Positions 2,971 through 29,233 of a stretch of 31,236 nucleotides of DNA are shown in pieces. The position numbers and the translations under genes are program-made. The DNA is taken from the NCBI GenBank assembly GCA_015231685.1, contig JADGBA010000002.1, positions 1 to 31,236 on the forward strand, read 5' to 3'. Below the pieces are notes generated by a model. The model was not told where the DNA came from and ran no database searches. It saw nothing but the letters and a program-made list of their open reading frames with translations. The DNA comes from Candidatus Omnitrophota bacterium. Lineage in GTDB: Bacteria; Omnitrophota; Gorgyraeia; 2-02-FULL-51-18; JAGOUK01. Each line of letters opens with the position of its first letter. The first letter of the stretch is position 1.

Positions 2971-3011
2971 CTACGCCTCCTTCAATGACGAATCGGAACG
3001 GCTGCATCGGG

Positions 3012-3644: not shown

Positions 3645-3661
3645 TGTCGCTGTTCTCCTTG

Positions 3662-11856: not shown

Positions 11857-12153
11857 TTACATTTTATTTAACATTTTTAACTGAGCAACTTCCTCTTCCA
11901 AACTCTTGATCTTCGCGTCGCTAGCGTCAATCCTCGCCGAAAGTTCATGCACCTTTTTCTGCAGATACTCTTCCATCGGCATAAACTCAACAACATTACC
12001 CTTGGTCTGAATCGGCATATCCGCCGGAACCTTCATGCGAATACCGTTAATCTTCTTGATAACCATTCCATCATCATCTGCGGCCGGCGCCGTCACGCCC
12101 ATGAGGCCAACCCCGGCAGCCACAATCACTGCCCCCAACAGTCGTCTTGTCAT
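11857..12153 (-). CDS. Small exported protein with a C-terminal coiled coil
   Basis: Signal peptide and heptad-rich C-terminus; ATGA overlap with the upstream gene. Confidence 0.65.
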   Translation of the reverse strand: MTRRLLGAVIVAAGVGLMGVTAPAADDDGMVIKKINGIRMKVPADMPIQTKGNVVEFMPMEEYLQKKVHELSARIDASDAKIKSLEEEVAQLKMLNKM

Positions 12154-13097
12154 TTCTTTTCGAATATATCACCCGGGATCATGCGCTTCTGATCCACTTT
12201 GAGTCTCAGCTCAGCCCTGAGCATCCTGAGTTCGACATCCTTGGCGTCTTTGGCGTTGGGCAGCAACTCAAGATATCTCTGATAGTGCGCCACCGCCTCT
12301 TTGGGTTGGTCAAGCTTCACGTCCTGCAGTACGGCCATGTTGTAATGAGCCAGCGCATCAGCCGGATTAAAACCCAATGCATAGTCGAATTCTTTGACAG
12401 CTTCCTCGTATTGCCCGCTCCGCATCAAGTACACCCCGAGATTGTAATGCGCGGCCGAAGCGTCCCGTTTCATCAGCCTGACCTGCTCGCTCAGGGCATC
12501 AGCCTTTTCGAATAGGGCGGCCGGCGCAACATCGGCAGGTGCGGCCGGCTGATCGGCTTCAGCGTCGGCGTTGGGGGCGTTCGCCGCAGCAGGCGATACC
12601 TTCAGTTGGGATTCCAAATCCGCGATTTTGAGTCTGGCATCAACCAGCTGACCCTGAAGATTCTTCACAAACGCCTCGTTAACCGGCGATGAGGCTTTAC
12701 GCGCAACTTCCTGTGCAGATCGGAGCGCGGCCTCGAGCTCGCCGATTCGCAACTGCAGTTTTTGGCGGACGGCGCCGAGCACCGCCATCTGCTTGAGCTG
12801 GGTCTCGTGCGACGCCCTTAGAGAACTCATTTCTTCAACGAGTTTCCTGGCCTGCTCCGCATCCATAGTATTAGCCGAAGCCTCTACACTTTGACTCTCC
12901 TGCGCGGCCGTGTTTTGGGAAAGCCGCTCCAGCGCTTTCTGGGTCGAAAGCAATTGTGCTTCTGTCTCCAGGAGATTCGACTCGAGGATCACATTGGATT
13001 TTCGGGCTTCGGTCCACTGCCATGTCAAAAGCGCCAATCCCGCTCCTGCCATCAACAGAAGCAGCCACCCAAGAAGCACCTTGTACAATCTCCTCAA
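12150..13097 (-). CDS. Membrane-anchored coiled-coil and TPR protein
   Basis: N-terminal TM, long coiled coil, Ala/Pro linker, TPRs AHYNLGVYL and AHYNMAVL; TTG start overlaps the secretin stop. Confidence 0.8.
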   Translation of the reverse strand: MRRLYKVLLGWLLLLMAGAGLALLTWQWTEARKSNVILESNLLETEAQLLSTQKALERLSQNTAAQESQSVEASANTMDAEQARKLVEEMSSLRASHETQLKQMAVLGAVRQKLQLRIGELEAALRSAQEVARKASSPVNEAFVKNLQGQLVDARLKIADLESQLKVSPAAANAPNADAEADQPAAPADVAPAALFEKADALSEQVRLMKRDASAAHYNLGVYLMRSGQYEEAVKEFDYALGFNPADALAHYNMAVLQDVKLDQPKEAVAHYQRYLELLPNAKDAKDVELRMLRAELRLKVDQKRMIPGDIFEKK

Positions 13098-14950
13098 ACG
13101 CCACCCCCGGCCTTGGGCGCGCTTTCTTGAGGGTAAGCCTGGAGGCCCTTTGCAATTTTATCAATGTCCGGCGTCACGTCTTGAGGCAGCTTGGTTCCCG
13201 CCGGAGGCAGCGGCGCCGCAACCGCAGACTGAACCGGTTGGGTGGTTTCATTTGAAGGCGCTTCAGCTTTGGGAGATTGCGCTGAAGCTGCCGGTTGCGC
13301 CGGCAAAGAAAGCGTGGAATAGTCTTGCAGGCCTTTGACCGGCCCAAGGTCCTCCACTTCTATCACAACATCCTCTTCGGCGGTGATGCGCTCCGACTTG
13401 CTCAGGTATTCCCTGTAATCACCCACCGCACTCGGACGATCGTGAATGTAGTTGGCTTCACCCCCGATGATATGAGGAGTCATAAACAGAATGAGCTCAA
13501 ATTCCTCGGTATCGGTTTCTTCACTTCGGAAGAATTCCTTAAAAAAGGGCAGATCCCCGAAGAACGGCAGCTTCCGGATGGTCGAGGTGTTCTCGGTTTT
13601 CCTCAGACCCCCGATCATCACTGTGGTGCCGTCCTTCACGCTGATCTTCGTTTCAACCTCGGTCGTGTCCACGATAGGAATCTCGTTGTTGGACGGCGTT
13701 GTGAGCGTCCGTGCCACACTGGAGATTTCGGGCTTCACGGCCATGGTTACAAATCCGTTCTTATTGATTTGCGGCGTGACATAAAGGGAAATACCGACAT
13801 CAATAAAGCTGACATCCTCGGCGGTGGTGCTGGTGGAACTTCCCGTCGTGGTGGTTGACGTTACATAGGCTTCACGTGTACCGATCAGGATCTTCGCCTC
13901 CTGGCCTTCAACGACGGTAATGCGCGGATTGGCAAGAATCTTGGATTCTCCCAGCGTTTTAAGAAACTCAAAGACCACTTCAAAATAGTCCGTTGTGAGT
14001 CCGGCGAAGGTCACCAGGCCTCCCGTGCCGAGACTGCGCGAAAACAGCCCTTGCAGGTTGAGTGACTCCAATTTGTCCGTAAAAATTTTCTGCCAGTCGA
14101 TCCCCTGGTCATAGTCATCACTCAGGATTACCTTGACGATCATCGTGTCGATCACCACCTCACGGGTCTTGCGATCGAGAGTGGCGACCAAATGCCGGAT
14201 TTCCTTCATCCGTTCCGGCAGCGCGCTGACGACGATCTGATTGGATCGAATGTCTGCCGTCAGCTCTGCCGCCTCCTGCACCCCGGCGGAAGCAAGAAGC
14301 GCCTGCATATCCTCTGCCTTCGCATAATCGAGATCAAAAATTTCCTTCTCCAGCGGTTGATCGAGTTCCGCAATGATATCCGTCATCACATTGATCTTGG
14401 CGGGAATGTCGACCAAAAAGAGAGTGCCCGTCTTCTGATCAGCCACCACACTGCCAACGTCACTTTTGGCCGCGTCGAGCATCTTGAACACCTGCTCGGT
14501 GGAAGCGTATTGAAGACGGTGAATGCGTACTTCGCGCTCATCATCATAGGACACGCCGTAGCGTGCCGTGTACTCCTGCATCGTCATGATGTACACCACC
14601 GGCCCGCGCTGGACATGCGCCAGACTGTTCGACAAAAGCACAATGTCCAGGATATCCGCGATACGGACATCCGTCAGATGGAGCGTCACACGCCCCGTCA
14701 CATTGGGGCTGAAATAGATGTTGAATTTGCCTTTCTTGGCCAGAAAGGTGAGCACCTCGACAACATCACTGTCCCGAAGGTCGATCGAAACGCGCTCCTC
14801 GATACCTTGGATAAATCCCATCGATTCGTCAGCAGGAGACGCTGTTCCGGGACAAACGATCAGCATCTGCACGCAAAGAAGCGCGACGGTCATCCGCCGG
14901 AACCACCGCTTGGTTCGTTGTCCGATCATGATTAAGCTCATCTGAGTCAC
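13094..14950 (-). CDS. Secretin (GspD/PilQ family)
   Basis: N0-like VSIDLRDSDV...VTGRVTL, N-domain repeats, ILANPRITVVEGQEAKILIG, DVGISLYVTPQI, KLPFFGDLP and ELILFMTPHI motifs. Confidence 0.93.
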   Translation of the reverse strand: MTQMSLIMIGQRTKRWFRRMTVALLCVQMLIVCPGTASPADESMGFIQGIEERVSIDLRDSDVVEVLTFLAKKGKFNIYFSPNVTGRVTLHLTDVRIADILDIVLLSNSLAHVQRGPVVYIMTMQEYTARYGVSYDDEREVRIHRLQYASTEQVFKMLDAAKSDVGSVVADQKTGTLFLVDIPAKINVMTDIIAELDQPLEKEIFDLDYAKAEDMQALLASAGVQEAAELTADIRSNQIVVSALPERMKEIRHLVATLDRKTREVVIDTMIVKVILSDDYDQGIDWQKIFTDKLESLNLQGLFSRSLGTGGLVTFAGLTTDYFEVVFEFLKTLGESKILANPRITVVEGQEAKILIGTREAYVTSTTTTGSSTSTTAEDVSFIDVGISLYVTPQINKNGFVTMAVKPEISSVARTLTTPSNNEIPIVDTTEVETKISVKDGTTVMIGGLRKTENTSTIRKLPFFGDLPFFKEFFRSEETDTEEFELILFMTPHIIGGEANYIHDRPSAVGDYREYLSKSERITAEEDVVIEVEDLGPVKGLQDYSTLSLPAQPAASAQSPKAEAPSNETTQPVQSAVAAPLPPAGTKLPQDVTPDIDKIAKGLQAYPQESAPKAGGGV

Positions 14951-15774
14951 TCCAGCCTCAGCTCCGCATTTCCGTCCGAAATCACCACACCGTTCGCTTC
15001 AATCTTGACAATCTTAATCCCCTTCACAAGCCCTCCGACTCCGACGGTATAGGTCCTTTGTTCCTCAATGTCCTCGATCAGCGCCTCTGGATGATCCGAC
15101 AGGTAAATGCCGGTCAACCGCAATTTCCCGGCAACCTGCGACAATCGCGCGCTTGGCTCACTTTCTGCCGTGTTCTCTCCGGCCACGATGGCTTTCGGCG
15201 TCCATGGCTGAAAAATATTTCTTTCCGCAAAAACGTCGCCATTTTCCTCAATGTCGACAAGATCAAAAAGGTCTCGAGGCACATCCAAAACTGAAGGGGC
15301 CTTGATCTGTGTGCTGATCCTCGAAACGAAACGGTCCTCAGGGGTCGCCTTCATCACAAAAACCTCCGCAACGAAGTAAGTTGTCACCGCCAAAAGAACC
15401 ACCACAAGAAACGCATTGATATTCCGCACCGCCAGGGCCCGGCGCACGGCACTGCGTCTTTGGGGAGAGAATGTACGTACGCCAAATGCCCCCGCCGTGC
15501 CCGACCTGATTTGCGCACGCGCCCTTCTCAATGTCTCGCGAAGGCGTGCCCACAACCCAGAAACACCGCCTACGGCCCGACCCAAAAAACCTGCACCGCC
15601 TTCAGCCGCCTGGCCCGCCCCCTCTCCGTCAGGCGTTTCGCCGGCTTCTCCACTCCCGGGGTCCTGTGCTATCCCCGCTGGCACCGATTCGGGTTCCTGA
15701 GAAGACTTCTCCTCCGGCCCGCTCCGGATGATGTTAAACAGCCGCTCTTCCGGTGTGAGATCGCTCGAAGACAT
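14947..15774 (-). CDS. GspC/PilP-like inner-membrane protein
   Basis: Single TM; C-terminal LRLTGIYLSDHPEALIED...VGGLVKGIKIVKIEANGVVI resembles the GspC HR domain; immediately upstream of the secretin; start moved to ATG 15774. Confidence 0.65.
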   Translation of the reverse strand: MSSSDLTPEERLFNIIRSGPEEKSSQEPESVPAGIAQDPGSGEAGETPDGEGAGQAAEGGAGFLGRAVGGVSGLWARLRETLRRARAQIRSGTAGAFGVRTFSPQRRSAVRRALAVRNINAFLVVVLLAVTTYFVAEVFVMKATPEDRFVSRISTQIKAPSVLDVPRDLFDLVDIEENGDVFAERNIFQPWTPKAIVAGENTAESEPSARLSQVAGKLRLTGIYLSDHPEALIEDIEEQRTYTVGVGGLVKGIKIVKIEANGVVISDGNAELRLE

Positions 15775-16669
15775 GGGTTCCGTTTGTGGCCGTACCCGGC
15801 CGGGACTCATTGCGTGCCAGGGAACCCAGCAGTCTGCCGCCGATGAGCACCTCTCGCTCAAGAATCTCATCCACCGTCTGCCGGTCCACCCGGGATCGAC
15901 CGTTCATCACCAGGGATTCGAGGCAATCATGACACAGCTGCGTGATCCTGCGCGGGTACCCCCTCGTGACCTGATAAATCGATTGAAGCGCCTCATCGGA
16001 AAAAAGCCCGTTCTCGGGCCCCGCTCCGGAAACCTGCATCCGAAACGCGATCATCTGCCGCGCCTCTTCAAAAGAAAGCGTTCTCAAGAGCGCCTTCATG
16101 CTGATTCGGTCCCAAAAATTTTTGACTTTCAGAAGCCGCGGAACCAGATCAAGCTGCGAAAACATCACCGCCTGCAGCAGCTTATGGTCATTGGTTTCGT
16201 AATTAAGAAGACCCCGCAACACTTCGAGCGAGGCTTCATTCATCTTCTGCGCCTCATCCACAACGAGAACGACTGTCTTTTTTTCCTCGACGCCTTTTTG
16301 AAAAAGATAATGGCGAATCGCCGCTGACATTTCAGCAAATCCCGCCGGCTGGCCGTCCATCACGGTGGCCACTCCAAACTGCTCGCAAATGGCCCTCAAA
16401 AAATCGGCCGCACCTTCAAAGCCCGGATTCAGAATCACCCGGACAATCATTCCGGCATCACACGCCATCATCTGGCAGAATTTCCGGCTGAGAGTCGTCT
16501 TCCCGGTCCCCACATCCCCCAGAATGAGGGATTGGCCCCTGCGAAGCTTCACCGCCACACACAACCGGTACAGCGCCGACTTGTGTTCACGCGACAAGAA
16601 AAGCAAATCGGGGTCCGGACTTGTTGAAAACGGCTCTCTGGAAAGATTCAGATGCGAATAATAACTCAC
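15734..16669 (-). CDS. ExeA/GspA/MshM-family AAA ATPase
   Basis: LSREPFSTSPDP, Walker A GDVGTGKT, Walker B VLVVDEAQ, RGYPRRI; GTG start. Confidence 0.9.
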   Translation of the reverse strand: MSYYSHLNLSREPFSTSPDPDLLFLSREHKSALYRLCVAVKLRRGQSLILGDVGTGKTTLSRKFCQMMACDAGMIVRVILNPGFEGAADFLRAICEQFGVATVMDGQPAGFAEMSAAIRHYLFQKGVEEKKTVVLVVDEAQKMNEASLEVLRGLLNYETNDHKLLQAVMFSQLDLVPRLLKVKNFWDRISMKALLRTLSFEEARQMIAFRMQVSGAGPENGLFSDEALQSIYQVTRGYPRRITQLCHDCLESLVMNGRSRVDRQTVDEILEREVLIGGRLLGSLARNESRPGTATNGTHVFERSHTGRAAV

Positions 16670-16749
16670 GAGCTTCCTGTTATTCTCCTTTTGGCAATCC
16701 CGCTCAAAATCGCTAAATTATAATAACAAGGGATAACACAATTAGATAA

Positions 16750-16779
16750 ATAATACAACAGTTAACAACTATTAGTCAA
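16750..16779 (-). promoter_or_regulatory. Internal sigma70-type promoter upstream of the exeA-like gene
   Basis: TTGACT (16779-16774), 18 bp, TATTAT (16755-16750) in an AT-rich spacer. Confidence 0.55.
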
Positions 16780-16822
16780 TGCTAAAAACGGTTAAGAAAT
16801 TAAATGCAGGGACTATAGGGGA

Positions 16823-17380
16823 CTATTCCGCGAACACAACTCGTTTGACAGTCACGTAGGATTTGATCTTATTCACATCCGTGGGGTGAGGCAGCATCCG
16901 GTACTCTTCAATGGTGTAGAGTTTCTTGGTTCTGACAAGATCAGCCATAAACAGCACCCATTGCCTCATCGTGGACTCGACTTGCATCCGCACCCGATAT
17001 TCCCCGGCGCCGCCTTCCCCTATATCCGGGGCCTGCGGCTTGACTTCCTTCAGCTCCAACCCGTGGCTGCGGGCCTTCAATTCAAGATCATGCAGCATGG
17101 ACGAAGGGATGCTTTCCGGGTCGGTGTCCGTGAGATCCAGCCTCTGAAGCATCAGTGACCGTATGGCGTCAAGCAGGGGCTTTTGGGCGAGACTGGACAT
17201 GTTGTGCAGAGCTGCTCGCTCGCGAAGAAGAATGGTTTCCCTGAGTTCCGAAATACTCCGCGCCAGGGGCCGGATCACACCATAGTCCGAGACCACCAAA
17301 AGCACCAAAACAAGCGCAGCGCTCAAAACGGTCCGCTCCCTCCGCGAGAGCGCGTTGAACCTGTCTGTGAGCTTCTTCAA
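16823..17380 (-). CDS. GspM/PilO-like inner-membrane platform protein
   Basis: FNALSRRERTVL followed by a TM, coiled coil and ferredoxin-like C-terminus. Start set at TTG 17380, 1 nt after the upstream stop; the ORF track gives 17422. Confidence 0.75.
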   Translation of the reverse strand: MKKLTDRFNALSRRERTVLSAALVLVLLVVSDYGVIRPLARSISELRETILLRERAALHNMSSLAQKPLLDAIRSLMLQRLDLTDTDPESIPSSMLHDLELKARSHGLELKEVKPQAPDIGEGGAGEYRVRMQVESTMRQWVLFMADLVRTKKLYTIEEYRMLPHPTDVNKIKSYVTVKRVVFAE

Positions 17381-17381
17381 T

Positions 17382-18860
17382 TTAGGAACGATGGACGACG
17401 CTGTCAATTTCAAAATCGACAAACTCCTTGTCTTTGACTATCCGCTTCGTGAGATGCTGTGTTTTGACCTCCCGGAAGAGCTTGCTCTGTTCAAGCTCAT
17501 TGACCAAGCTGAATACCTGTGTCATTTCGCTCGCCCGCCCCCGGATTGTAAAAATACGGTTAGCGGATAAGGCCACTTCAGTCAGATAAATCTCGTGGGG
17601 CAGCACGCGGTGAAGATACAAAAGCTCCCTGAACTCATCCGCAGTCGCGTCGTTGAGGTCCATGATCTGTTTGATGAAGCTGCGCGTGCGGCCGACAGCC
17701 TGTGTTTCGGCTTCCGTTGTTCGTACCCGTTCACGAAGCCACTCCGCGTATTGGCGTTTTCCGAAAAAAGCCGAAATAAAAATTCCCATGAGGATTATGA
17801 AAATCGAAAAACCCAGAGCGCCCAGAATCAGAAGGTCCCGCCCTTTCTGGATGAGAGCCGCTTCAATGACAATCTCCTGCGGCAGCAGATTGATCCGTGG
17901 CGGTTTTTCCATGCGCGCAAAACCCAGCACGGCGGACATCGAAACCTCCTCCGTGAACGATTGCCTGCCTGCGGCCGCCCGGAGTATTTTGCGGGTGGTT
18001 TCTTCCAGACTCAGCTTCTGAGGCTGCAGTTTGACGGCATCTTTGAGTTTGGCGGAAAGTGTTTCCAGCGCGCCCGTCGCGCCTGTCACCACAAAAGCCG
18101 CAAGCTCCCGCGCTGTGTCCTCGGTCTGATAGATCTGCAGACATCGCGCAATATCCGAGGTCAGCTTCGCCCCCCACACCTCAAGCGATTCGTGCAGGCG
18201 GTCCGCCCCGATGGAAATGGTCTGCGAAAACAAAATCCCTGATCCCTGATATACAAAAAAATTGGAGTTTTCTGAATCCACATCCAGCACCCCGACCACC
18301 TGATTCGCAGCTGCAGGGTGCTTCAAAGCTTTGAGTTCCGCCCGAATCCACGCCGCACTGCCCTCAATCGCGAAGGCGATATGATGTGTTTTCATTCCGG
18401 CATCCTGAAGAACGCGAAGTGTGCGGTTCAAAATTCTCCGGTGGGCAATCACCAGCATGACGTGAGAATATCCGGGACGGGCCGTCTTGATGGCCGCGTC
18501 TTCCTCCAGAATCACCGAATAGTCATAAATGATTTCATCTTCCGCGTACGGGGTCTGCTTGGCGGCCTGCAGACGGACGATTTTTTGGATCTCTGCCGGA
18601 TCCGTTGAAGGGACTTCCAGAACACGTGCGGCGAGTTGCTGCCGCGGAATGGAAATCACGAGATCCTTCGGGCGAACCGCATATTTCTTGAAGAGAAGGA
18701 CGAGATCGCTCGAGGCGTCCGCGTCCTGCGAAGACAGGAGAATCGTCCCCGCATCGACAAGCTCAAAACTTCCCAGAGCATGCCGGGTGAACGCCCATTT
18801 TAGCCAGTGACTTCCCAGCTCCAGGACAAAACGCTGGGGAGTCCGCTTCGTGAAGATCAT
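17382..18860 (-). CDS. PilM/PilN (GspL-like) fusion
   Basis: Actin-like N-region (VLELGSHWLK, VLDVDSENSNF, VVTGATG), RINLLP, TM, PilN-like C-terminus (IYLTEV...IRGRA); ATG 18860 overlaps the gspK stop. Confidence 0.8.
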   Translation of the reverse strand: MIFTKRTPQRFVLELGSHWLKWAFTRHALGSFELVDAGTILLSSQDADASSDLVLLFKKYAVRPKDLVISIPRQQLAARVLEVPSTDPAEIQKIVRLQAAKQTPYAEDEIIYDYSVILEEDAAIKTARPGYSHVMLVIAHRRILNRTLRVLQDAGMKTHHIAFAIEGSAAWIRAELKALKHPAAANQVVGVLDVDSENSNFFVYQGSGILFSQTISIGADRLHESLEVWGAKLTSDIARCLQIYQTEDTARELAAFVVTGATGALETLSAKLKDAVKLQPQKLSLEETTRKILRAAAGRQSFTEEVSMSAVLGFARMEKPPRINLLPQEIVIEAALIQKGRDLLILGALGFSIFIILMGIFISAFFGKRQYAEWLRERVRTTEAETQAVGRTRSFIKQIMDLNDATADEFRELLYLHRVLPHEIYLTEVALSANRIFTIRGRASEMTQVFSLVNELEQSKLFREVKTQHLTKRIVKDKEFVDFEIDSVVHRS

Positions 18861-19951
18861 CCTGCCGAGACCGCCCCCGAATCGCCGGTGTTTCCGATGC
18901 TCCCGATCGTGGCTTCCCGCAAAAAGAGCACCCGTCCCGCGCGATCCATCACACATTCAAAGCCGGCGTTCTGCCCCCGGCGTCCGGACGCAATCGAAAA
19001 AAAACGGAATGTTTCCGGCTCAAATCCCCAGAACTGCTTCAACCCTTCAAACACCGCGGCGTCCTCCTCGGTGAGACCGGCCTTCTCGGCGAGGTCCGAA
19101 AGGCTTCCAAAAGGGCCCGCGGCTTCATCTTCGGATCCCTCCGATTCAAAAAAGGATTCGCGGTAGCTTTCAACACCGGAGGCGATCGATACTGAGATGC
19201 CCAGGCGCCCCAGCGTCGCCGCCCTGACCGCATTAAGATTGGTCTTTCCCGAACCGTACACCGTCAAATCCTCTTTGATCACATCATAAATTTCTGTCGT
19301 CATTCCGGGGACTCTGAGGAGCTCCTCCACGGACCCAAACCCCCACCCCCCCGACGGCGCTTCGAGATCCATTCCGTCCGGTGTATCTTCACGCTCACGC
19401 CACGCGATGGTCGCTTCCGCCAACTCCACAGCCTGATCCTCAAGCAGACGGCCGGCATTCAGATAAAGAGCCTTGAGCACCTCCTCATCCACGGCGTTGA
19501 TATTGATCCTCCGCTCTTCGTTTTCCATCCCGTAAATCCATCGCGGGCCGTCTTCGCCTGAACCTTCCGACCAGTATCCGATCGACAAATACGTTTCGGA
19601 ATCATCAGGTGCAAAATTCCTGAAAAGCTCCGGATGATTTTGATCCAGAGAGCTCCAATCCCATGCCGTTTCATCACCGGTTGAATCCGTCACCATTATC
19701 GCGGGCTCATCATTTGAATCAGCTTCTTCTTCCTCCGCTTTCTGGGCGAAGGCAGCCCGGGCAAAAGATATTCCCCCAAAGGCCGCCTGACGCCCGATAC
19801 GGTCCTGAGCCAGTCGCATGAGAAGGTGTGCCTGCGACCGGGCGCGTACCGAAAGCGCAATGCTCATCATGCCAAAAAAGATCGTCGCCCAAAGCGCCAC
19901 AATCAAAACCGAGCCTCTGCAATTCATAATCCTGCGGACACACCATCTCAT
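18857..19951 (-). CDS. gspK: GspK-like minor pseudopilin
   Basis: RG|SVLIVALW helix without E5, ERRININA, FGSVEELLRVPGMT and TVYGSGKTNLN motifs. The start may be 19927. Confidence 0.85.
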   Translation of the reverse strand: MRWCVRRIMNCRGSVLIVALWATIFFGMMSIALSVRARSQAHLLMRLAQDRIGRQAAFGGISFARAAFAQKAEEEEADSNDEPAIMVTDSTGDETAWDWSSLDQNHPELFRNFAPDDSETYLSIGYWSEGSGEDGPRWIYGMENEERRININAVDEEVLKALYLNAGRLLEDQAVELAEATIAWREREDTPDGMDLEAPSGGWGFGSVEELLRVPGMTTEIYDVIKEDLTVYGSGKTNLNAVRAATLGRLGISVSIASGVESYRESFFESEGSEDEAAGPFGSLSDLAEKAGLTEEDAAVFEGLKQFWGFEPETFRFFSIASGRRGQNAGFECVMDRAGRVLFLREATIGSIGNTGDSGAVSAG

Positions 19952-19960
19952 TTAGTGTTT

Positions 19961-19989
19961 ATTATACAAAAACAAATTATATTTATCAA
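19961..19989 (-). promoter_or_regulatory. Internal sigma70-type promoter directly upstream of gspK
   Basis: TTGATA (19989-19984), 17 bp, TATAAT (19966-19961), 9 nt, then ATG at 19951. Confidence 0.65.
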
Positions 19990-20684: not shown

Positions 20685-21234
20685 CTGACGCCTCCTCATC
20701 TTCCTTTTCTTCAGGCAATAGCAACGTCAGGCTCACCGTCCGTTCCAAATCATCCACCGCCTCAATCTTCGCCACTTGCATATCTACACCCTTGACCGTG
20801 ACTGGCTCCAATTCCGTACGGATCCGAATCTTTTCCTCACCGAGCTCGGGCGCCCCCGCCCCCGGAAGTCCTTCGTCTGAATCCCCCGCATCCAAAAACT
20901 CCAGCTCCAAATCCACCACCGCCTGCTCAATCACCCCCGCCCGCTCCGCCGCCGCTTCAGAACGACGAATCAGCTCAATCGACCGGCTCATCGAAAGATA
21001 AGTCACCATGAACGTCATCGACACCACCACCACCGCCACCAAGACCTCAATCAGGGTGAAGCCGCTTTTTAACCGGGGCGAGCGGGACGAATGCGCCGTC
21101 TGCGCCGTGCGAGCCCTTCGGCGAGCTGCGGCCATCCGAATGGCGGCGCCCCGCCCAATTGCGAGAAGTCGAGCTATCATTGAGCCGCGCAATTGGGTTC
21201 GCCCGTTTGAAATTCTGCTTTTGTGATGAACCAT
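20668..21234 (-). CDS. GspI/PilV-like prepilin (class III signal)
   Basis: G|FTLIEVLVAVVVV; start uncertain (21234, 21180 or 21135). Confidence 0.75.
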   Translation of the reverse strand: MVHHKSRISNGRTQLRGSMIARLLAIGRGAAIRMAAARRRARTAQTAHSSRSPRLKSGFTLIEVLVAVVVVSMTFMVTYLSMSRSIELIRRSEAAAERAGVIEQAVVDLELEFLDAGDSDEGLPGAGAPELGEEKIRIRTELEPVTVKGVDMQVAKIEAVDDLERTVSLTLLLPEEKEDEEASDETAS

Positions 21235-21256
21235 CGCTCCCTGCCTGCGCACTGAG

Positions 21257-22507
21257 CTATTTCATCCAGCTCATATCGAAGATGGGGAGCATGATCGCGG
21301 AGACGATAAGGCCGACGAGAAGACTTAAGGCCAGGATGAGCAGCGGTTCGATGAGGGAGCTGAGCATCTTGATGCTTCTGAGGCTTTCTGCCGAATAAAA
21401 GTGCGCGACTTCACGCAGGGCTCCGGAGAGATCGCCTCCCTCCTCGCCCACCGCGATCATCTGCGCCACGAAGGGCCCGAAGGACTGTGCGCGCTTGATC
21501 ACCTCGGCCAGCGTTTCTCCTTCGGAGATACGTCGCTGCGCGTCCGCCAGGTCCTTCTCGAGCCGGTCGTTGGACAGCACCGGCCGCGTCACTTCGATGG
21601 CCTGGTGCACCGGAACCGACTGATCCAGAAGCATCGCGAGCGTATCACAGAAACGCGCGATATCCGCCTTCGTCTTCACCTCACCCAGAAGCGGCAAACG
21701 GCTCGACGCCCACTGCCGGCGCGCCTTGCCGGCTTTTCCGCCGAAGGCCGCAAGAAGCCCCACAAGCGCCCCTCCAAAAACCCCCCAAAAAACCGACTGC
21801 CATGAGGGGCGCGCCAGAGCCATGAGCATCTTTGTCACCATGGGCAAGGTCTCGTAAGACTGGTTGAATAGCGACGTTAACTTCGGCAAAACAAAGGTGA
21901 ACATAAAAAATACCGTTCCGATGCCCACCACCACAATCAACATGGGGTAAGCCAGGGCGGAACGGATTTGAGAGCGGGTTTCGTCCTCCCTCTCCAGATG
22001 TTCAGCAAGTGTCTGAAGCACCCGGTCGAGAGAGCCGCCGGATTCACCCGAACGGATCATGCTGATGTAGCGATGATCAAAACTCCCGGCGCCGTGTGCG
22101 GACAGCGAATCGGAAAACGGAGTACCGTTCTTTACATCCTTCGATACGTGCTCCAGAATATGCAAGAGCCGCGGGTCCTGCGCCTGGGACCCGATGAATT
22201 CAAGCGCCCGGAGAATCTGTACCTTGGAACGCATCATGCTGGCCAGCTGACGGGTAAACACGCAGATCGTTCGGAAAGGGATCTTTCCGGAGCGGGGCCG
22301 GGCGGGAACGGATTTGCCCTGACGCGCGGGCTTCCCGCCGCGAGCGCCTTTCTTCGGGCCGGCAGACACAACAGCCTCGGCGACCTCAAGCGGAACGAGC
22401 CCCATGCGCTCGATTTCGCCGAGCGCTTCGACTTGCGTCATCGCCCGGACCACACCTTCCACAACCGCCCCGGGACCCTTCTTGGCCTTGTAAGAGAATT
22501 CTTTCAT
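21257..22507 (-). CDS. gspF: GspF/PilC inner-membrane platform protein
   Basis: FTRQLASMM, GESGGSLD, ALAYP, VGEEGGDL and IEPLLIL motifs; start at ATG 22507. Confidence 0.93.
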   Translation of the reverse strand: MKEFSYKAKKGPGAVVEGVVRAMTQVEALGEIERMGLVPLEVAEAVVSAGPKKGARGGKPARQGKSVPARPRSGKIPFRTICVFTRQLASMMRSKVQILRALEFIGSQAQDPRLLHILEHVSKDVKNGTPFSDSLSAHGAGSFDHRYISMIRSGESGGSLDRVLQTLAEHLEREDETRSQIRSALAYPMLIVVVGIGTVFFMFTFVLPKLTSLFNQSYETLPMVTKMLMALARPSWQSVFWGVFGGALVGLLAAFGGKAGKARRQWASSRLPLLGEVKTKADIARFCDTLAMLLDQSVPVHQAIEVTRPVLSNDRLEKDLADAQRRISEGETLAEVIKRAQSFGPFVAQMIAVGEEGGDLSGALREVAHFYSAESLRSIKMLSSLIEPLLILALSLLVGLIVSAIMLPIFDMSWMK

Positions 22508-22526
22508 CCGCGCCCCCCCGCGCAAG

Positions 22527-24218
22527 TTAAGCGGTTTGAACCACCCGGAGAAGCTCCTCCGGAGTTGTATCGCCCTGGCGGATCTTTTCCCAACCCGACT
22601 GAAACAGTGTCCTCATCCCCGCCGCGCACGCGACCTTCTTGACCTCGCCCGCGCTCGCGCGCCGAATGACAAGCTCGTGAATCTCCGGAGTGAACGGAAG
22701 AATTTCGTAAATCGCCAGACGCCCCTGATACCCTGACTGCCGACACCGGTCACAACCCACGGCACGCTTCACACTTTGGAGCTCAGGCCCGGGAATGGAC
22801 TCCCGGAGAACGGCGGGGAGCCCCGAGGGATCCCACGGCTGGTCCTTGGCGCAATGCGGACAGACCTTTCGGACCAACCGCTGCGCCACCACTCCGAGGA
22901 CCGTCGATGAGACCAGATACGGCTCAATCTGCATATCCAACAGACGTGTCACGGCACCCGCGGCGTCGTTGGTGTGCAAGGTGCTCAAGACCAGGTGTCC
23001 GGTGAGTGACGCCTGGACCGCGATCTCGGCGGTTTCGTGGTCACGCACCTCACCCACCATAATGATATCCGGATCATGCCGCAAAACGCTTCTGAGTACC
23101 TGCGAAAAGGTCAGGCCGGCCTTGGTGTGCACCTGTATCTGTTCGACGAACCGCAATTTGTATTCCACAGGATCCTCGACCGTGATGATCTTGACATTGG
23201 GCTGGTTGAGCCGCGAAAGACACGCATAGAGGGTTGTTGTTTTTCCGCTCCCCGTCGGACCGGTCACAAAAACGAGGCCGTGCGGATGGGCAATCAAATC
23301 CTGCGCGAGCTTCAAGTCCTCCGGACTCATCCCCAGGTGCTCCAGGCTCATCAACATCTCCGTCGGAAGAACGCGGATCACCACGCCCTCGCCATAGGCG
23401 TCGGGAATCACCGAAACACGCAAATCAAACTGGCGGTTCTCGAGTCGTACCCGTGTACCGCCCGACTGCGGAAGACGCCGCTCGACCATATCCAGCCCCG
23501 TCATGATCTTGATGCGCGCGACGATCGCCTTATACAGGTAGCGAATATCATCCGAAACCTTCGCCGGCTGAAGCACGCCGTCCACGCGATAACGAACCAC
23601 GAGTTCCTTGTCGTAGGGTTCAAAGTGCACATCCGTGGCGCGGGTGTGAATGGCTTCCACCAGAATTTGATTGACGAGCTGAACCACCGAGGCGTCTCCC
23701 GCGAGCTTTTCGATATCTTCGACAGGCTCCAGCGTCGTGACGGCAGGATCCCGCTTTTCCTCCTCCTTGGAGAGGATTTTCTCGACCGTTTCCGAGCCCA
23801 CACCGTAATAACGGTGCATCGCCTCGCTGATGTCACCGGAGGTGGAGAGGACCGTGTCGATTTCGGTTTTGAGCTGCATCTTGATGCCGTCCAGGGGCCA
23901 GGTATTCAGCGGATCGGAAATGGCGACGGTCAAAATGTTGTTCTCGTAGCGCACAGGCATGATCTTGTAGTGCCAGACAAATTTGACCGGCATCTTTTCA
24001 ATGGCTTCCCGCGGAATTTCGGCGCTTCGCAGGCGCACATAGGGAATGTTCATCTGACGGGACAGGCATTCGAGAAGCGATTCCTCGGTGATTTTGCCCA
24101 TCTCGATAAGAATTTCGCCGAGATACTTGCCGTTCTGCCGCTGGATCTCCACTGCCGCTTCGATATCTCCGGCGGTGACCAGCCCCGCATCCTGAAGAAT
24201 TTTGCCGATTTTAAGCAC
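22527..24218 (-). CDS. gspE: GspE/PilB assembly ATPase with an MshEN-like N-terminus
   Basis: GPTGSGKTT, TVEDPVE, LRHDPDIIMVGEVRD, GHLVLSTLHTN, Zn-binding CxxC pairs. Confidence 0.95.
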   Translation of the reverse strand: MLKIGKILQDAGLVTAGDIEAAVEIQRQNGKYLGEILIEMGKITEESLLECLSRQMNIPYVRLRSAEIPREAIEKMPVKFVWHYKIMPVRYENNILTVAISDPLNTWPLDGIKMQLKTEIDTVLSTSGDISEAMHRYYGVGSETVEKILSKEEEKRDPAVTTLEPVEDIEKLAGDASVVQLVNQILVEAIHTRATDVHFEPYDKELVVRYRVDGVLQPAKVSDDIRYLYKAIVARIKIMTGLDMVERRLPQSGGTRVRLENRQFDLRVSVIPDAYGEGVVIRVLPTEMLMSLEHLGMSPEDLKLAQDLIAHPHGLVFVTGPTGSGKTTTLYACLSRLNQPNVKIITVEDPVEYKLRFVEQIQVHTKAGLTFSQVLRSVLRHDPDIIMVGEVRDHETAEIAVQASLTGHLVLSTLHTNDAAGAVTRLLDMQIEPYLVSSTVLGVVAQRLVRKVCPHCAKDQPWDPSGLPAVLRESIPGPELQSVKRAVGCDRCRQSGYQGRLAIYEILPFTPEIHELVIRRASAGEVKKVACAAGMRTLFQSGWEKIRQGDTTPEELLRVVQTA

Positions 24219-24221
24219 CCG

Positions 24222-25616
24222 TCAACCTTCCCTTCTGCGTTCTTGAAGCTCGCCGATTAGATATAACTTGTCTTCCGGAACCTGGTCAAACCGGCCATCC
24301 AGGATCATCCGGCAGCCGTTGAGCGTCTGCCCGACCGGCACATAAGCTCCGGGCCGCCCGGTGTGAAGTTCCGCCGTAAAGAACGGCTGGGTCAAAAAGT
24401 TTTGAAGCCGCAGGCCGCGTTCATACAGCAAGCGGTCACTTTTGGAAAGCTCCTCGATGCCGATGACCGATACGATGTGATTGAGCTCCTCGAGGCGCCG
24501 GAGAATCCGGAGCGTCTCCTGCGCGATATCAAAATGCCGTTTTCCGACAATGTCCGGATCCAGGTTCACCGTGGAAGACAACAGCGGATCAATTGCCGGA
24601 TAAAGCCCCTTCTGGACCCGGGCGCGGGAGAGAACAACGATCGAATCGAGATAACTGAAGATCGTCACCACCGCCGGATCCGTCAGATCGTCCGCCGGCA
24701 CATACACCGATTCCACCGCCGTGATCGAGCCGGCGGCCTCCGTTTGAATCCGCTCATGGAATTCACTCATCTCCGAAGAAAGCGTCGGCTGATAACCCGT
24801 CTCAGAGGGAATGTGGCCCATCAGTGTCGAAACTTCCATACCGGCCTGCGCAAACCGGTACACGCTGTCGACGAAGAAGAGAACGTCCTGGTTCTTTTCC
24901 CGGAGGTGTTCGGCCAGCGTGATGCCGGTCAGAATCGCTTCAAATCTCGCTCCGGGAGGCTCATCCATCTGCCCATACACCAGGGCCACACGGTCGAGAA
25001 TGCCGGTGCGCTTCAGCTCATGATAGAGCTCATGCCCCTCACGGATACGCTCTCCCACCCCCGTGAACACGCAGGCGCCGTGGTGCTTGTGCACCACGTT
25101 GTGAATGACCTCCAGCGTCAAGAGCGACTTTCCGAGCGCAGCACCACCCAGAATTCCGTTTTTACTTCCTTTGATCAGCGGAAAAAGGAGATCCACCATC
25201 TTGATCCCCGTCTCAAGAATCTCGAATTTCTGGCGTTCACGCATTTCGGGGTTAAGCAGAAACTTCTTGTCGCGGCGCCGGATGGGCTTCATCTTTTCGG
25301 CCTCAATCGGTCCAAGCCCGTCAATGGGCTGCCCCAGTACGTTCAAGACGCGGCTCAAGACCTTTTCTCCCACCGGCACCTCGATCACTTTTCCGGTCGA
25401 ACGGACCTCTGAACCGCGGACCACATTGATGCTGGTCGCCAGGCTGATGCATCGCACCCGGGTCTGCGAAAGATGCTCCATCACTTCGAGTGTCACCTGG
25501 CGTCCAAAGCGGTCAAGCGCCTCCAGAATCTCATACATTCCGGGAAGGGCTTCCGCTCCGGAGAATTCCACATCAACCACCGGCCCGTTAACTGCCGCAA
25601 TCTTTCCGGTCATCAT
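24222..25616 (-). CDS. atpD: F1-ATPase beta subunit, divergent
   Basis: GVGERIREG (catalytic Glu), VYGQMDEPPGAR, VYVPADDLTDPA, QNFLTQPFFTAE; P-loop GGAALGKS; 464 aa. Confidence 0.93.
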   Translation of the reverse strand: MMTGKIAAVNGPVVDVEFSGAEALPGMYEILEALDRFGRQVTLEVMEHLSQTRVRCISLATSINVVRGSEVRSTGKVIEVPVGEKVLSRVLNVLGQPIDGLGPIEAEKMKPIRRRDKKFLLNPEMRERQKFEILETGIKMVDLLFPLIKGSKNGILGGAALGKSLLTLEVIHNVVHKHHGACVFTGVGERIREGHELYHELKRTGILDRVALVYGQMDEPPGARFEAILTGITLAEHLREKNQDVLFFVDSVYRFAQAGMEVSTLMGHIPSETGYQPTLSSEMSEFHERIQTEAAGSITAVESVYVPADDLTDPAVVTIFSYLDSIVVLSRARVQKGLYPAIDPLLSSTVNLDPDIVGKRHFDIAQETLRILRRLEELNHIVSVIGIEELSKSDRLLYERGLRLQNFLTQPFFTAELHTGRPGAYVPVGQTLNGCRMILDGRFDQVPEDKLYLIGELQERRREG

Positions 25617-26512
25617 TCTTCCTCCTCCCGGGTCCTGAGGCCCTGCGCGTGGCTTGCGAAAACCTCCCGGATCCCGGCATCGATCACTTCGTGGGAGGCC
25701 CTGAAATACCGGCTCAAGGTGCGGCCGCGCTGACGGGAAAGCCGCTCATGTCTCTCGGAGAGTTCAATCGACCGGTTGGCCACCTCAGAAAGCTTGGATT
25801 CCCAAAAAAGCTCATACAATCTCCGGCCAAACCAGAGCGCGATCGTGTAATCCACAATTTTGCGGATATCCGGCTCGATGATGGTGAGGCCGCGCGGCGC
25901 GACCGGCATCTCCCCGAGACTGCCGTCATCGGCTCCTGTGATATCCGCTTCATGAAACGGCAGAACCCGTGACTCTTCCAGGGTCTGGCGGGTGAAGGAC
26001 TGACAGCGGGCATAGATGATGGTCGCGCTCCCGATTTTTTGATTCAGGTACTGGTCCAAAAGAAAGGGTTTGAGCGGACTCACGGCGCTGTAGCCCAGAG
26101 GGAGTCCGATCCCTTCGAATTCCACCGCCGGCACACCGAGCTCTGCCAGCCGCAGGGCCCCGCGGCGGCCCAGCACCACCACCTGCGTCGCCGGATTTTC
26201 ATCATGCCGCCGGGCAGCGCGATCGATGATCTGCGCGTTCAAGTTTCCCGTAAATCCCTCATCCGAAGTCAGCACCACCACCGCCGGATCCTGACAGGGG
26301 TTGCGCACGAACAAACTGTCTTCAAGACGAATTTCGTGATAGAACCTGAAAAAGGTTCGGAGCACCCTCAAAAAGGCCGAGGCCTGCCTGCGCTCGGAGT
26401 CCAGATATTGATACTCCGCGATCGCAATCTGCTTGAGCACATTCAGGGTGTTGAGCAGTTTAAGCTCATCTTTCAGCGTGTCCCTGAGACGTGTGACGGC
26501 CGCCTTACCCAC
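25613..26512 (-). CDS. atpG: F1-ATPase gamma subunit, divergent
   Basis: N-terminal helix, VVVLTSDEGFTGNLN motif, C-terminal helix; lies between alpha and beta; GTG 26512 overlaps the alpha stop; 299 aa. Confidence 0.82.
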   Translation of the reverse strand: MGKAAVTRLRDTLKDELKLLNTLNVLKQIAIAEYQYLDSERRQASAFLRVLRTFFRFYHEIRLEDSLFVRNPCQDPAVVVLTSDEGFTGNLNAQIIDRAARRHDENPATQVVVLGRRGALRLAELGVPAVEFEGIGLPLGYSAVSPLKPFLLDQYLNQKIGSATIIYARCQSFTRQTLEESRVLPFHEADITGADDGSLGEMPVAPRGLTIIEPDIRKIVDYTIALWFGRRLYELFWESKLSEVANRSIELSERHERLSRQRGRTLSRYFRASHEVIDAGIREVFASHAQGLRTREEEE

Positions 26513-27986: not shown

Positions 27987-27994
27987 CGGCAATC

Positions 27995-28696
27995 CTAAAG
28001 CTCGCTCATCGCGCTGGATTGCTTCTCAAAGTAGTGCCGCAGGCTCCCGTCAAACACCACTTCGCCTATCGTGATGATAAATCCCGCCAAAAGCGACGCG
28101 TCGGGTTCAACGGCCGGATCTGCCGCGCAGGCAAGCTTGGCCTTAATCTCTTCCTTCTGCCGGGCGGTGAGTTCAAACGCGGTTCTCACTGACGGAACCG
28201 ACCCGGGCGTCGCCTTGCCGGCGGCAGCTTCCAGCGACCCCAAAAGATCGTCCGCCATACAATCATGAATCGAGCGCAGCATACGCTCACTGAAACCCTG
28301 CTCGATGATCTGCGCGGCAAACGACGCTCCCCGGCGCCGCGCTTCAAAATCCATCTTCCGCTCAAGCGATGCTTTGGCTTCCTCGACCTGGGCTTCAAGG
28401 GCTTCTTTTTCCCTGCCGAGCTCCACCCGCATCCGCTCCATCATCGTCTTGATTTCGGTCTCCGCCGCGGCCCGGCGCTTCTGAATTTCGGCATCGAGAC
28501 TTTTTAGCTTTTCCTCGCGGCGCTTCTGCATCTGAATTTCGTACACATTGAGCTTCTCCTCCTTCTGGAGATTCATTTCGTGAAGCTTGTTCACACGTTT
28601 GACCGCATCCAGAAGATGGCCATGAAAAACGCGCCGCATCACGAGAAGGAGAACCACAAAAAAACCGACCTGCAGAAGCACGAGCTGTATCAGCAC
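27995..28696 (-). CDS. atpF: Fo subunit b fused to a delta/OSCP C-terminal-like domain
   Basis: N-terminal TM, long charged coiled coil, C-terminal VRTAFEL...DASLLAGFIITIGEVVFDGSL; GTG 28696 with GGGAGG RBS; 233 aa. Confidence 0.8.
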   Translation of the reverse strand: MLIQLVLLQVGFFVVLLLVMRRVFHGHLLDAVKRVNKLHEMNLQKEEKLNVYEIQMQKRREEKLKSLDAEIQKRRAAAETEIKTMMERMRVELGREKEALEAQVEEAKASLERKMDFEARRRGASFAAQIIEQGFSERMLRSIHDCMADDLLGSLEAAAGKATPGSVPSVRTAFELTARQKEEIKAKLACAADPAVEPDASLLAGFIITIGEVVFDGSLRHYFEKQSSAMSEL

Positions 28697-28697
28697 G

Positions 28698-28910
28698 TTA
28701 TACCCTCCCGACAAAGATGTGGAAGATGACCAGAAGCGCGATGACCGCAATGGCTTCGGCAAAAATAAACCCCAGCATCATCGTCATCTGAATCCGGGGG
28801 GCTGAGGAAGGATTTCTCCCCAGCGCCATGATCCCCGCGTACCCGATAACGGCGATGACAGCCGATGGTCCGGCGGTACTGAGAATCATCAGAAGAAGAA
28901 TTTGCGCCAT
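28698..28910 (-). CDS. atpE: Fo subunit c (proteolipid), divergent
   Basis: 70 aa helical hairpin, loop GRNP, Glu in FAEAIA. Confidence 0.88.
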   Translation of the reverse strand: MAQILLLMILSTAGPSAVIAVIGYAGIMALGRNPSSAPRIQMTMMLGFIFAEAIAVIALLVIFHIFVGRV

Positions 28911-28929
28911 AAGCCGCTAAATCACCTTT

Positions 28930-29172
28930 CTATTCGACAACAGCCACCAGGGTCTCGCCGTCAAAACGCATGAGCCCCTGCCAGACCTTGAGGTGCTTCG
29001 GTTCTTCGTTTGGCGGAAAAACAACCAGCTTTCCGTCACCCAACAAGGAAATAATCGGCGCGTGCTGATCGGCGACCTCAAACTCACCCATCACCCCAGG
29101 CAAAAGCACGCGGTGGACCTTGCCATCATGAATCGTTCGATCGGAAATATGCATTATTTTGGCGCTAAACAT
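28930..29172 (-). CDS. atpC: F1 epsilon subunit, N-terminal beta-sandwich only
   Basis: VLLPGVMGEFEVADQHAPIISLLGDG matches the epsilon LPGxxGEFxVLxxHAPxxxxL pattern; 80 aa with no C-terminal helices. Confidence 0.82.
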   Translation of the reverse strand: MFSAKIMHISDRTIHDGKVHRVLLPGVMGEFEVADQHAPIISLLGDGKLVVFPPNEEPKHLKVWQGLMRFDGETLVAVVE

Positions 29173-29205: not shown

Positions 29206-29233
29206 ATTATACACTATGGATAGCAAATATCAA
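29206..29233 (-). promoter_or_regulatory. sigma70-type promoter heading the atp-gsp run
   Basis: TTGATA (29233-29228), 16 bp, TATAAT (29211-29206) in an AT-rich spacer. Confidence 0.65.

Follow-up and report, generated by a model that had tools for sequence, protein, structure and literature searches.

An F-type ATPase gene cluster lacking subunit a in an Omnitrophota secretion/pilus operon: a probable ATP-consuming module of the envelope machine

The standard example of rotary catalysis coupled to ions is the F-type ATPase. What, then, is done by a set of F-type genes that encodes a catalytic head, a rotor, and a stalk but no subunit a, and that runs directly into the genes of an envelope machine resembling a type II secretion system (T2SS) or a type IV pilus? 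The question is raised by a stretch of 31,236 nucleotides (nt) from a metagenome-assembled genome (MAG) of a Candidatus Omnitrophota bacterium (assembly GCA_015231685.1, contig JADGBA010000002.1, positions 1 to 31,236), which we call the window. We consider it probable that these genes specify a second F-type ATPase, a non-chemiosmotic one that forms part of, and is made with, a T2SS/type IV filament-like envelope machine. It most likely burns ATP for that machine instead of making ATP.

The source assembly comprises 1.38 Mb in 200 contigs and is 63% complete, and the genes of the window were identified by Pfam profile searches. All genes of the ATPase/secretion run are on the minus strand, in the order epsilon, c, b-delta, alpha, gamma, beta, gspE, and gspF, followed by the remaining secretion genes to the secretin. 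The c stop is separated by 1 nt from the GTG start of the b-delta fusion gene (its open reading frame [ORF] spans 27995-28762, and the true start is the GTG at 28696), and the b-delta stop lies 2 nt from the alpha start. The alpha stop is overlapped by 8 nt by the GTG start of gamma, and the gamma stop is overlapped by the ATG of beta. The beta TGA stop is followed after 3 nt by the GTG start of gspE, and the gap between gspE and gspF is 1 nt; spacing this tight at both places suggests translational coupling. Terminator-like sites inside the run showed no excess over shuffled sequence. An earlier note on this DNA had described a promoter leading into six touching or overlapping ATPase ORFs, a beta stop 3 nt from the gspE start, and a run continuing to a secretin. 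The ORFs and the junction were all found as described, and a sigma-70-like site, a consensus match only, is present upstream of epsilon.

The same note had reported that no subunit a gene (atpB) occurs in the cluster or the window. We searched the whole 63%-complete assembly with the subunit a profile PF00119 and found no candidate at E<=1. A hydropathy scan of the cluster identified GspF as its sole polytopic protein, and no atpI, atpQ, or atpR gene is present in the cluster. Because the source assembly is only 63% complete, a genome-level lack of subunit a cannot be claimed from this assembly alone. Its other PF00006 matches are two Rho-like genes only.

The reading was settled by comparison with related genomes. 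Exactly one atpB was found in 37 of 41 related genomes and in all 21 of those that are at least 90% complete. The atpB gene of the relatives always adjoins a separate alpha/beta pair, and the window beta is 44 to 48% identical to the betas of those pairs. Every relative also has, at another place, a beta that is 48 to 69% identical to the one in the window, and the closest loci (58 to 69% beta identity) come from Candidatus Omnitrophota or from MAGs of the same GTDB order. We fetched 31 pilus-linked and 7 atpB-linked loci for comparison and mapped the window proteins onto them. The atpB-linked loci are ordinary operons, such as that of the same-family genome G001, which encodes a, c, b, a full-length delta, alpha, gamma, beta, and epsilon. 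Subunit a was found in none of the relatives' pilus-linked loci (about 40 examined). A polytopic gene hidden in the larger gaps of these clusters was considered and rejected, as the clusters of 6 relatives, larger gaps included, encode no polytopic protein besides GspF. The earlier note had held that the cluster is not the housekeeping synthase and had proposed a search for a separate canonical atp operon. This operon (atpB-E-F-H-A-G-D-C) was found in the relatives, so that their atpB is not an orphan, and none was found in the 63%-complete source assembly.

The phylum-wide sample gave a second line of evidence. A PF00119 match is missing in 28 of 116 high-quality Omnitrophota genomes. Among 19 listed genomes without atpB (95 to 99% complete), 11 carry the pilus-linked beta and no canonical beta; these betas are 50 to 60% identical to that of the window, and no polytopic protein was found in their clusters. 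Five of the 11 were searched with PF00006, and each has a second alpha/beta-family pair, which in four of the five shares its contig with a weak, below-cutoff match to a V-type subunit I. This combination is consistent with a V/A-type ATPase operon. The four operons are located at G099:C11:24099-28167, G058:C4:31630-35711, G107:C104:1293-5334, and G117:C15:5420-10189, and their subunit I of ~600 to 640 amino acids (aa) scores 17 to 23 bits with PF01496 (cutoff, 30.7), as for a divergent subunit I. As these genomes have no atpB and their other enzyme is V/A-like, they offer no subunit a to borrow. In every relative checked, the pilus-linked F-type set thus has a separate chemiosmotic enzyme for company, of canonical F1Fo or V/A type, and it is kept even where there is no F-type subunit a, which supports the claim that it is not the housekeeping synthase.

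We next consider the link to the secretion genes. Conservation of the beta-gspE adjacency, which the earlier note had singled out, was complete: beta is followed by gspE in 29 of 29 and 12 of 12 loci, or 41 of 41 relatives' loci having downstream sequence. Of the two outcomes that the note had set out as refuting, an orphan atpB without another atp operon and a non-conserved junction, neither was observed. The set of 12 comes from the atpB-less genomes, and in some of those loci epsilon is interleaved between beta, gspE, and gspF. Three gene orders were distinguished. In order A, found in the window, up228 (the neighbor of the ATPase genes on their upstream side) is followed by epsilon, c, b-delta, alpha, gamma, and beta; the anchor protein stands alone, and the secretin is downstream. 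Order B has the same succession from up228 to beta, often with a small MshEN-like ORF before gspE, and order C has tandem up228 genes followed by alpha, epsilon, c, b-delta, gamma, and beta. The gamma-beta-gspE-gspF core is identical in all three. A GspE subfamily exclusive to ATPase-linked loci was sought and not found.

In a maximum-likelihood tree, the 34 pilus-linked betas form one clade (support, 99/99) apart from 7 canonical Omnitrophota betas, and the window beta lies in a subclade (100/100) with those of G009, G013, and G018. A second tree, made with FastTree, rooted on the canonical betas and containing 12 more rows, again showed the pilus-linked set as distinct. Of the phylogeny that the earlier note had proposed for alpha and beta, the distinct beta clade is thus established by tree, and the N-type and Mycoplasma type 2 and 3 enzymes were compared by hidden Markov model (HMM) score. 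The beta of one locus assigned to uncultured Gammaproteobacteria (L061, 9980-11371) is very divergent (YVPSDDLLDQG and LPAVDML) and sits on a long branch; it may belong to an N-ATPase-type enzyme.

The catalytic motifs of the window enzyme are intact. Beta has the Walker A motif GGAALGKS, the catalytic GERxREG motif (GERIREG), the Walker B Asp, GYQPTL, and YVPADDLTDPA, as well as an EELSxxD version of DELSEED, and alpha retains GDRVTGKT together with its Arg finger. None of the ~45 members examined has lost Walker A, the catalytic Glu, Walker B, or the alpha Arg finger. Both subunits reached the cutoffs of the curated models, with 551.8 bits versus 462.85 for beta (atpD, TIGR01039) and 508.9 versus 484.45 for alpha (atpA, TIGR00962), and their best PDB matches are ordinary F1 structures (443 and 489 bits). 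In the beta search, most ordinary F1 betas scored 450 to 489 bits and the Mycoplasma mobile G1-ATPase beta scored 338 bits. Gamma, epsilon, c, and b-delta are recognizable but far under the curated cutoffs (55.9 bits for gamma with TIGR01146).

The contact between head and stalk differs from that of the canonical enzymes. Only 14 residues precede the beta-barrel of alpha in the window, compared to 28 in the canonical relatives, and the pilus-linked alphas have 8 to 20 in nearly all cases (two ORFs are longer); the N-terminal delta-binding helix is absent throughout. The PF00213 match of b-delta spans only profile positions 106 to 170 of 172, whereas the canonical delta of G001 spans 3 to 172, and the b-delta family alignment shows a conserved ...AG...DGSL motif. 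In G109 (L067:2981-5299), b-delta and alpha form a single 772-aa ORF, either a natural fusion or an assembly or frameshift artifact, which fits a b-delta that still sits at the alpha crown. G058 (L065), a genome of the same genus, has a GIY-YIG-like ORF (3570-3860) separating b-delta from alpha. The short epsilon was considered as an adaptation to hydrolysis and rejected as such, because the relatives' canonical epsilon, at 97 aa and likewise limited to the beta-sandwich, is of similar length; a small epsilon is no peculiarity of the cluster.

The window c subunit keeps both the ion-binding Glu (FAEAIA) and the R-N-P loop. At this carboxylate position, however, subclade B has A, S, T, G, or Q and inner subclade C has Q, and in the tree rooted with canonical betas Glu is ancestral and was lost at least twice (two or three independent events). 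An exhaustive profile search with the c family alignment covered 1.84 billion representatives. Among the best 40 full-length hits of the family, which have an RNPS-like loop, 14 are without a carboxylate; with the canonical RxPE loop, Glu is present in 58 of 58 (Fisher p = 7e-7). At least seven losses, each in a 50%-identity cluster of the family, were verified by locus or context (P0004, P0005, P0006, P0015, P0026, P0030, and P0025): the first three by near-identity to loci that were read, and P0015, P0026, and P0030 by their position beside epsilon or within a full ATPase cluster. Not every low-scoring c-like representative could be counted as a carboxylate loss, as P0054 has an unrelated context and P0036 has none. 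Glu occupies the site in 8 of 8 loci from atpB-less genomes versus 8 of 30 from atpB-bearing genomes (Fisher p about 3e-4); since there are only two or three loss events on the tree, we take this association as an observation, not a result.

Loss of the carboxylate in kin indicates that the ion site is dispensable in the family, in agreement with the missing subunit a, and argues against ion coupling as the family's shared function. That the site is likewise dispensable in the window's own Glu-bearing member we infer from its kin; we read its Glu as an ancestral state retained rather than as proof of ion coupling. The c family also varies in copy arrangement. Its two best-scoring representatives, P0002 and P0003, have 138 to 140 aa with two c-like stretches each, both of them family hairpins, and at L081:750-1498 (GCA_022560555.1) tandem c-like genes of 79 and 78 aa lie between epsilon and b-delta, the second with Gln at the Glu position.

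The gene upstream of the cluster was also examined. Homologues of up228 lie directly upstream of the ATPase genes in all three architectures and constitute an Omnitrophota-specific module. The AlphaFold2 (AF2) model of up228 has a predicted local distance difference test (pLDDT) score of 86; no relative of the fold was found in the PDB (best E, 0.06; TM-score no higher than 0.24), and its ESM Atlas neighbors are Omnitrophota hypothetical proteins only. In the closest relative, G009 (L053:2-5857, contig C12), the module (36% identity) makes up the final 210 aa of a much larger product, at least 1952 aa long, in which no Pfam domains were found, whereas the window has a stand-alone 228-aa up228 with DnaE upstream rather than a giant gene. 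In G013 (L017:764-2086), directly upstream of a type A ATPase cluster, the module, transmembrane (TM) helix included, is joined to a GGDEF diguanylate cyclase domain on the cytoplasmic side, and the GspE of that cluster also has the MshEN domain, which binds cyclic di-GMP (c-di-GMP). The fusion is worth attention because GspE carries an MshE-type c-di-GMP-binding motif, which in the window scores 56.5 bits with NF053729 (cutoff, 38). A role for up228 as a substitute for subunit a was rejected: besides a signal peptide and a periplasmic domain, up228 has just one TM helix, at the C terminus, and so is not a polytopic protein. It may instead be the membrane anchor of an envelope protein served by the machine.

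In two loci of one metagenomic lineage (L075:6988-10193 and L076:1053-5521), an up228-like gene and a c-like gene with Ala at the Glu position directly precede PilM-PilN-like and GspM-like (179-aa) genes, with no alpha, beta, gamma, gspE, or gspF nearby; L075 also has, immediately upstream, a gene encoding at least 2756 aa. These loci hint that the c-like protein is tied to the membrane platform and can stay there without an F1 next to it.

The enzyme that we propose would work as follows. The alpha3-beta3 head would hydrolyze ATP and turn a rotor of gamma, epsilon, and the c-ring against the membrane-anchored b-delta stalk. With no subunit a there is no ion path, and the ring would act as a mechanical rotor or anchor, not as a turbine. 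Within the inner membrane or immediately beneath it, work would be handed on to the GspE/F/L/M platform or the TM-anchored up228-family protein. Given the c-di-GMP-binding MshEN domain of GspE, the whole unit is probably switched on by c-di-GMP. The direction of hydrolysis, the rotation, and any transfer of mechanical work to GspF/L/M or the anchored envelope protein are inferred. The earlier note had proposed a dedicated ATP-driven rotary module serving the pilus/secretion apparatus rather than an ATP synthase; the distinction from a synthase and the tie to gspE stood up, and torque, retraction, or export remains a proposal. A more specific version is tentative and, on present evidence, somewhat doubtful: rotation of an ion-blind c-ring might be passed to the GspF/L/M platform or to the TM anchor of the upstream protein (the tail of a giant fiber protein in relatives), causing a pseudopilus or surface fiber to be assembled, extruded, retracted, or turned in order to attack or hold host cells. 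If true, it would provide the first demonstration of an F-type rotor supplying a secretion or pilus apparatus with torque. A widespread, conserved F-type enzyme that has no ion channel and is tied into the secretion/pilus operon of ultra-small bacteria, probably predators or parasites, would mean that Mycoplasma is not alone in having put this rotor to new use as a mechanical motor.

Several observations weigh against this proposal. The 63%-complete source assembly yielded no canonical F-type and no V/A-type enzyme, so the status of a second enzyme is not demonstrable for the source organism. Internal promoter-like sites on the minus strand at 19989-19961 (11 of 12 consensus positions) and 16779-16750 (10 of 12), which precede the GspK-like gene and the AAA_22 gene, respectively, mean that the distal secretion genes may also be transcribed separately. 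The relatives have GspE paralogues of similar identity without an adjoining ATPase, and this type of secretion machine is therefore not strictly dependent on the ATPase. Some use of the ion site is conceivable from the Glu kept in the window c subunit, and Glu and the RNP loop are also present in the 8 c subunits recovered from atpB-less genomes. Finally, when b-delta, the PilM-PilN fusion, and GspM were predicted as a complex, the score was 0.01 (mark, 0.32), a value that counts neither way.

These same observations bear on an arrangement in which the ATPase and the secretion/pilus machine are merely co-regulated, e.g., on host attachment, without contact, the ATPase having its own job, such as the disposal of imported ATP or some other membrane task. 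The lack of a predicted contact, the ATPase-free GspE paralogues, and the internal promoter-like sites would all suit such an arrangement. It accounts poorly for a gamma-beta-gspE-gspF core that stays invariant across three shuffled architectures and class-level divergence, for an epsilon interleaved among beta, gspE, and gspF in several relatives, for the lineage in which a c-like gene stands directly beside PilM-PilN and GspM-like genes with no F1 nearby, and for the translational coupling suggested by gaps of 3 and 1 nt. We regard mere co-regulation as rather unlikely.

For the window itself, the main rival is a genuine ion-coupled F1Fo, a synthase or ATP-driven proton pump that uses a subunit a encoded elsewhere, by either a canonical atpB or a divergent, unassembled gene. 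This rival is sustained by the retained Glu and polar loop of c, and it agrees with the passing of the atpA and atpD equivalog cutoffs by alpha and beta and with a genome that is only 63% complete in a group in which most members have one atpB. However, the relatives' atpB stands in an operon that supplies every other subunit as well (c, b, delta, alpha, gamma, beta, and epsilon), and 11 genomes that are 95 to 99% complete keep the cluster, Glu included, without atpB. The latter weaken the rival where it is strongest. Moreover, the carboxylate was lost in sister lineages with identical synteny, the N-terminal alpha-delta contact of true synthases is missing, and an a-like polytopic gene is present in none of about 40 loci. 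Ion coupling of the window enzyme is in our judgment unlikely.

A third possibility is that the F1-like head is not a rotor but an export or unfolding ATPase resembling FliI/FliJ, an F1 relative that serves the type III export gate, with c and b-delta as membrane anchors only. FliI/SctN models are the next-best HMM families after the F-type ones, and giant envelope proteins are encoded beside the cluster in relatives. A complete rotor (gamma, epsilon, and a c that has the RNP loop) and a stalk are nevertheless conserved here, and an unfoldase would need neither; alpha and beta alternate as in F1, with a noncatalytic alpha that keeps the Arg finger; and type II secretion substrates cross the inner membrane via Sec or Tat, not by a cytoplasmic ATPase. 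We consider this reading quite improbable. Decay of an atp operon paralogue without current function, as might be read from the loss of subunit a and from gamma, epsilon, c, and b-delta scoring far under curated cutoffs, is highly improbable given that all six reading frames are intact and that the catalytic motifs are invariant in about 45 sequences diverged to 50% identity, with synteny kept across a class.

The preferred reading, an ATP-consuming module of the envelope machine, concerns the genes and sites collected in Table 1. The AAA_22 ATPase of the run is presumably GspA/ExeA/MshM-like, a likeness with no profile match behind it. A PG_binding_1 protein (11241-11768) just beyond the secretion run could belong to it. 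The remainder of the window encodes an ExbB/ExbD pair (3012-3644 and 2554-2970) next to a TPR protein of 795 aa, as well as UvrA, a CutA1 protein, and an SNF-family sodium symporter, and includes the stretches 1823-6049 and 6046-8898 (both minus strand) and 9673-11265 (plus strand).

Table 1. Features of the ATPase/secretion run and its upstream gene, with the evidence for each
Feature	Position	Strand	Evidence
up228: signal peptide, beta-sandwich, three-helix bundle, C-terminal TM anchor	29331..30017	-	Translation, TM scan, synteny, AF2
Sigma-70-like promoter-like site upstream of epsilon (TTGATA, 16-nt spacer, TATAAT)	29206..29233	-	11/12 consensus positions; consensus match only
Epsilon, 80 aa, beta-sandwich domain only	28930..29172	-	PF02823, 42 bits
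c subunit, 70-aa hairpin, GRNPSS loop, ion-binding Glu kept (FAEAIA)	28698..28910	-	PF00137, 36.5 bits
b-delta fusion: N-terminal TM helix, coiled coil, delta/OSCP C-terminal domain only	27995..28696	-	PF00213
Alpha, 495 aa; Walker A and Arg finger intact; no N-terminal delta-binding helix	26505..27992	-	PF00006/PF00306
Gamma, divergent	25613..26512	-	PF00231, 76.7 bits; GTG start at 26512
Beta, 464 aa, catalytic motifs all intact	24222..25616	-	TIGR01039, motifs, tree
GspE/PilB-family assembly ATPase with N-terminal MshEN c-di-GMP-binding domain	22527..24218	-	PF00437, 440 bits; PF05157
GspF/PilC platform protein	21257..22525	-	PF00482, two repeats, 203 bits
Two pseudopilin/pilin-like proteins, N-terminal methylation motifs	20668-21252, 19986-20699	-	PF07963
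GspK-like minor pseudopilin	18857..19951	-	Weak PF21687 match; HHH_3
PilM-PilN fusion (GspL-like)	17382..18956	-	PF11104 and PF05137; kept in relatives
GspM/PilO-like protein	16823..17422	-	PF04612, 30.9 bits
AAA_22 ATPase	15734..16669	-	PF13401, 63 bits; TIGR03015, 156 bits (under its cutoff)
Bitopic protein, weakly GspC-like	14947..15870	-	NF041515, 29 bits (under cutoff); one TM helix
Secretin (GspD/PilQ family)	13094..14950	-	PF00263, 158 bits; PF03958
TPR protein	12150-13097	-	TPR Pfam matches
Exported coiled-coil protein, 98 aa, last of run	11857-12153	-	TM/signal segments

Loci of this kind have been described before. Seymour et al. (2023, Nat Microbiol, PMC10066038) reported "symbiotic" (non-respiratory) F-type ATPase/type IVa pilus loci in Omnitrophota, the two gene sets being no more than 10 kb apart in 57 of 66 contigs and the loci occurring in every class, and proposed a role in attachment or motility on host cells; the earlier note's mention of such clusters in Omnitrophota surveys was correct. 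The window resembles these loci in its phylum, in an alpha and beta distinct from the respiratory set, and in the adjoining pilus/secretion genes. It is a member of the published locus type, which is itself not new, and as that type is already published, the window is not a discovery. The main text of PMC10066038 makes no mention of a missing subunit a, the c-ring, the stalk, or a b-delta fusion. The comparative facts given above (no subunit a, a V/A-type enzyme alongside, a missing alpha-delta contact, carboxylate losses, and an invariant core) make the published co-location sharply testable. Seymour et al. (PMC10066038) group alpha with Mycoplasma type 2/3 enzymes, whereas the HMM and PDB scores of the window proteins favor an ordinary F-type. 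The window alpha scores 508.9 with the atpA model versus 395 (MMOB1660) and 294 (MSC_0619); these are scores, not a phylogeny, and they leave a special Mycoplasma kinship unsupported. A 2026 preprint on complete Omnitrophota genomes (10.64898/2026.06.07.730766) reports alpha/beta in 125 of 176 genomes and gamma in only 30, which fits the divergent gamma of the pilus-linked cluster.

The Mycoplasma enzymes provide the closest precedent for a change of employment. The type 2 G1-ATPase drives the gliding of M. mobile (PMC11864180), and the type 3 "F1-like X0" ATPase, whose alpha-like subunit is without the N-terminal helix, is needed for the MIB-MIP surface system (PMC12994834). The window shares with them an F1-type head co-opted for a surface system encoded in the same operon of a host-dependent small bacterium, an alpha-like subunit without the delta-binding helix, and a cluster-encoded signal-peptide protein with a C-terminal TM anchor. 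However, the type 2 and 3 clusters are without c, b, and delta and encode a 12-TM protein and other unique X0 parts (PMC12994834, PMC3369863), whereas the window has c and b-delta and no 12-TM protein. It also failed the family models, with 410.7 bits versus a cutoff of 850 (NF045858), 381.5 versus 570 (NF045934), 395.1 versus 600 (NF045863), and 294 versus 520 (NF045936). Because c, b, and delta are missing there and the window fails their family models, the Mycoplasma link is one of analogy, not membership. The comparison drawn in the earlier note therefore holds as an analogy only.

Compared to a canonical F1Fo, the window enzyme has an alpha and beta that reach the atpA and atpD cutoffs, best PDB matches among ordinary F1 structures, gamma, epsilon, a c with the Glu and the R-N-P loop, and a b-type stalk. 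The canonical enzyme differs in having subunit a, atpI, a separate full delta, the delta-binding helix of alpha, another gene order, and no secretion operon.

The N-ATPases, described by Dibrova and colleagues in 2010, are reportedly encoded in the order atpDCQRBEFAG, keep subunit a, and have AtpQ and AtpR. The window is similar in its long b, in having no separate delta gene, in its apparent place as a second F-type operon, and in a weak match to an alternate-F0 b model. In contrast, it scores well below the N-ATPase cutoffs (500.8 versus 752 with TIGR03305 and 505 versus 750.5 with TIGR03324), has no a, Q, or R, and follows another gene order.

The secretion genes were compared to T2SS, MSHA-type, and type IVa pilus machines, with which the run shares a GspE/PilB with MshEN, GspF, pseudopilins, GspK-, GspL-, GspM-, and GspC-like proteins, an AAA_22 ATPase, a secretin, and a TPR protein. 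The window GspE scores nearly equally with the GspE model (566; cutoff, 630) and the PilB model (562; cutoff, 676), in both cases under the cutoff. GspC, GspK, and GspM are weak matches, and the equivalent of GspL is a PilM-PilN fusion. No recognizable major pilin was found in the run, and no prepilin peptidase was found in the 63%-complete assembly. For the secretion part, the most fitting description is a type IV filament-class machine whose content is T2SS-like; unlike these T2SS and pilus machines, it has an F-type ATPase in its operon.

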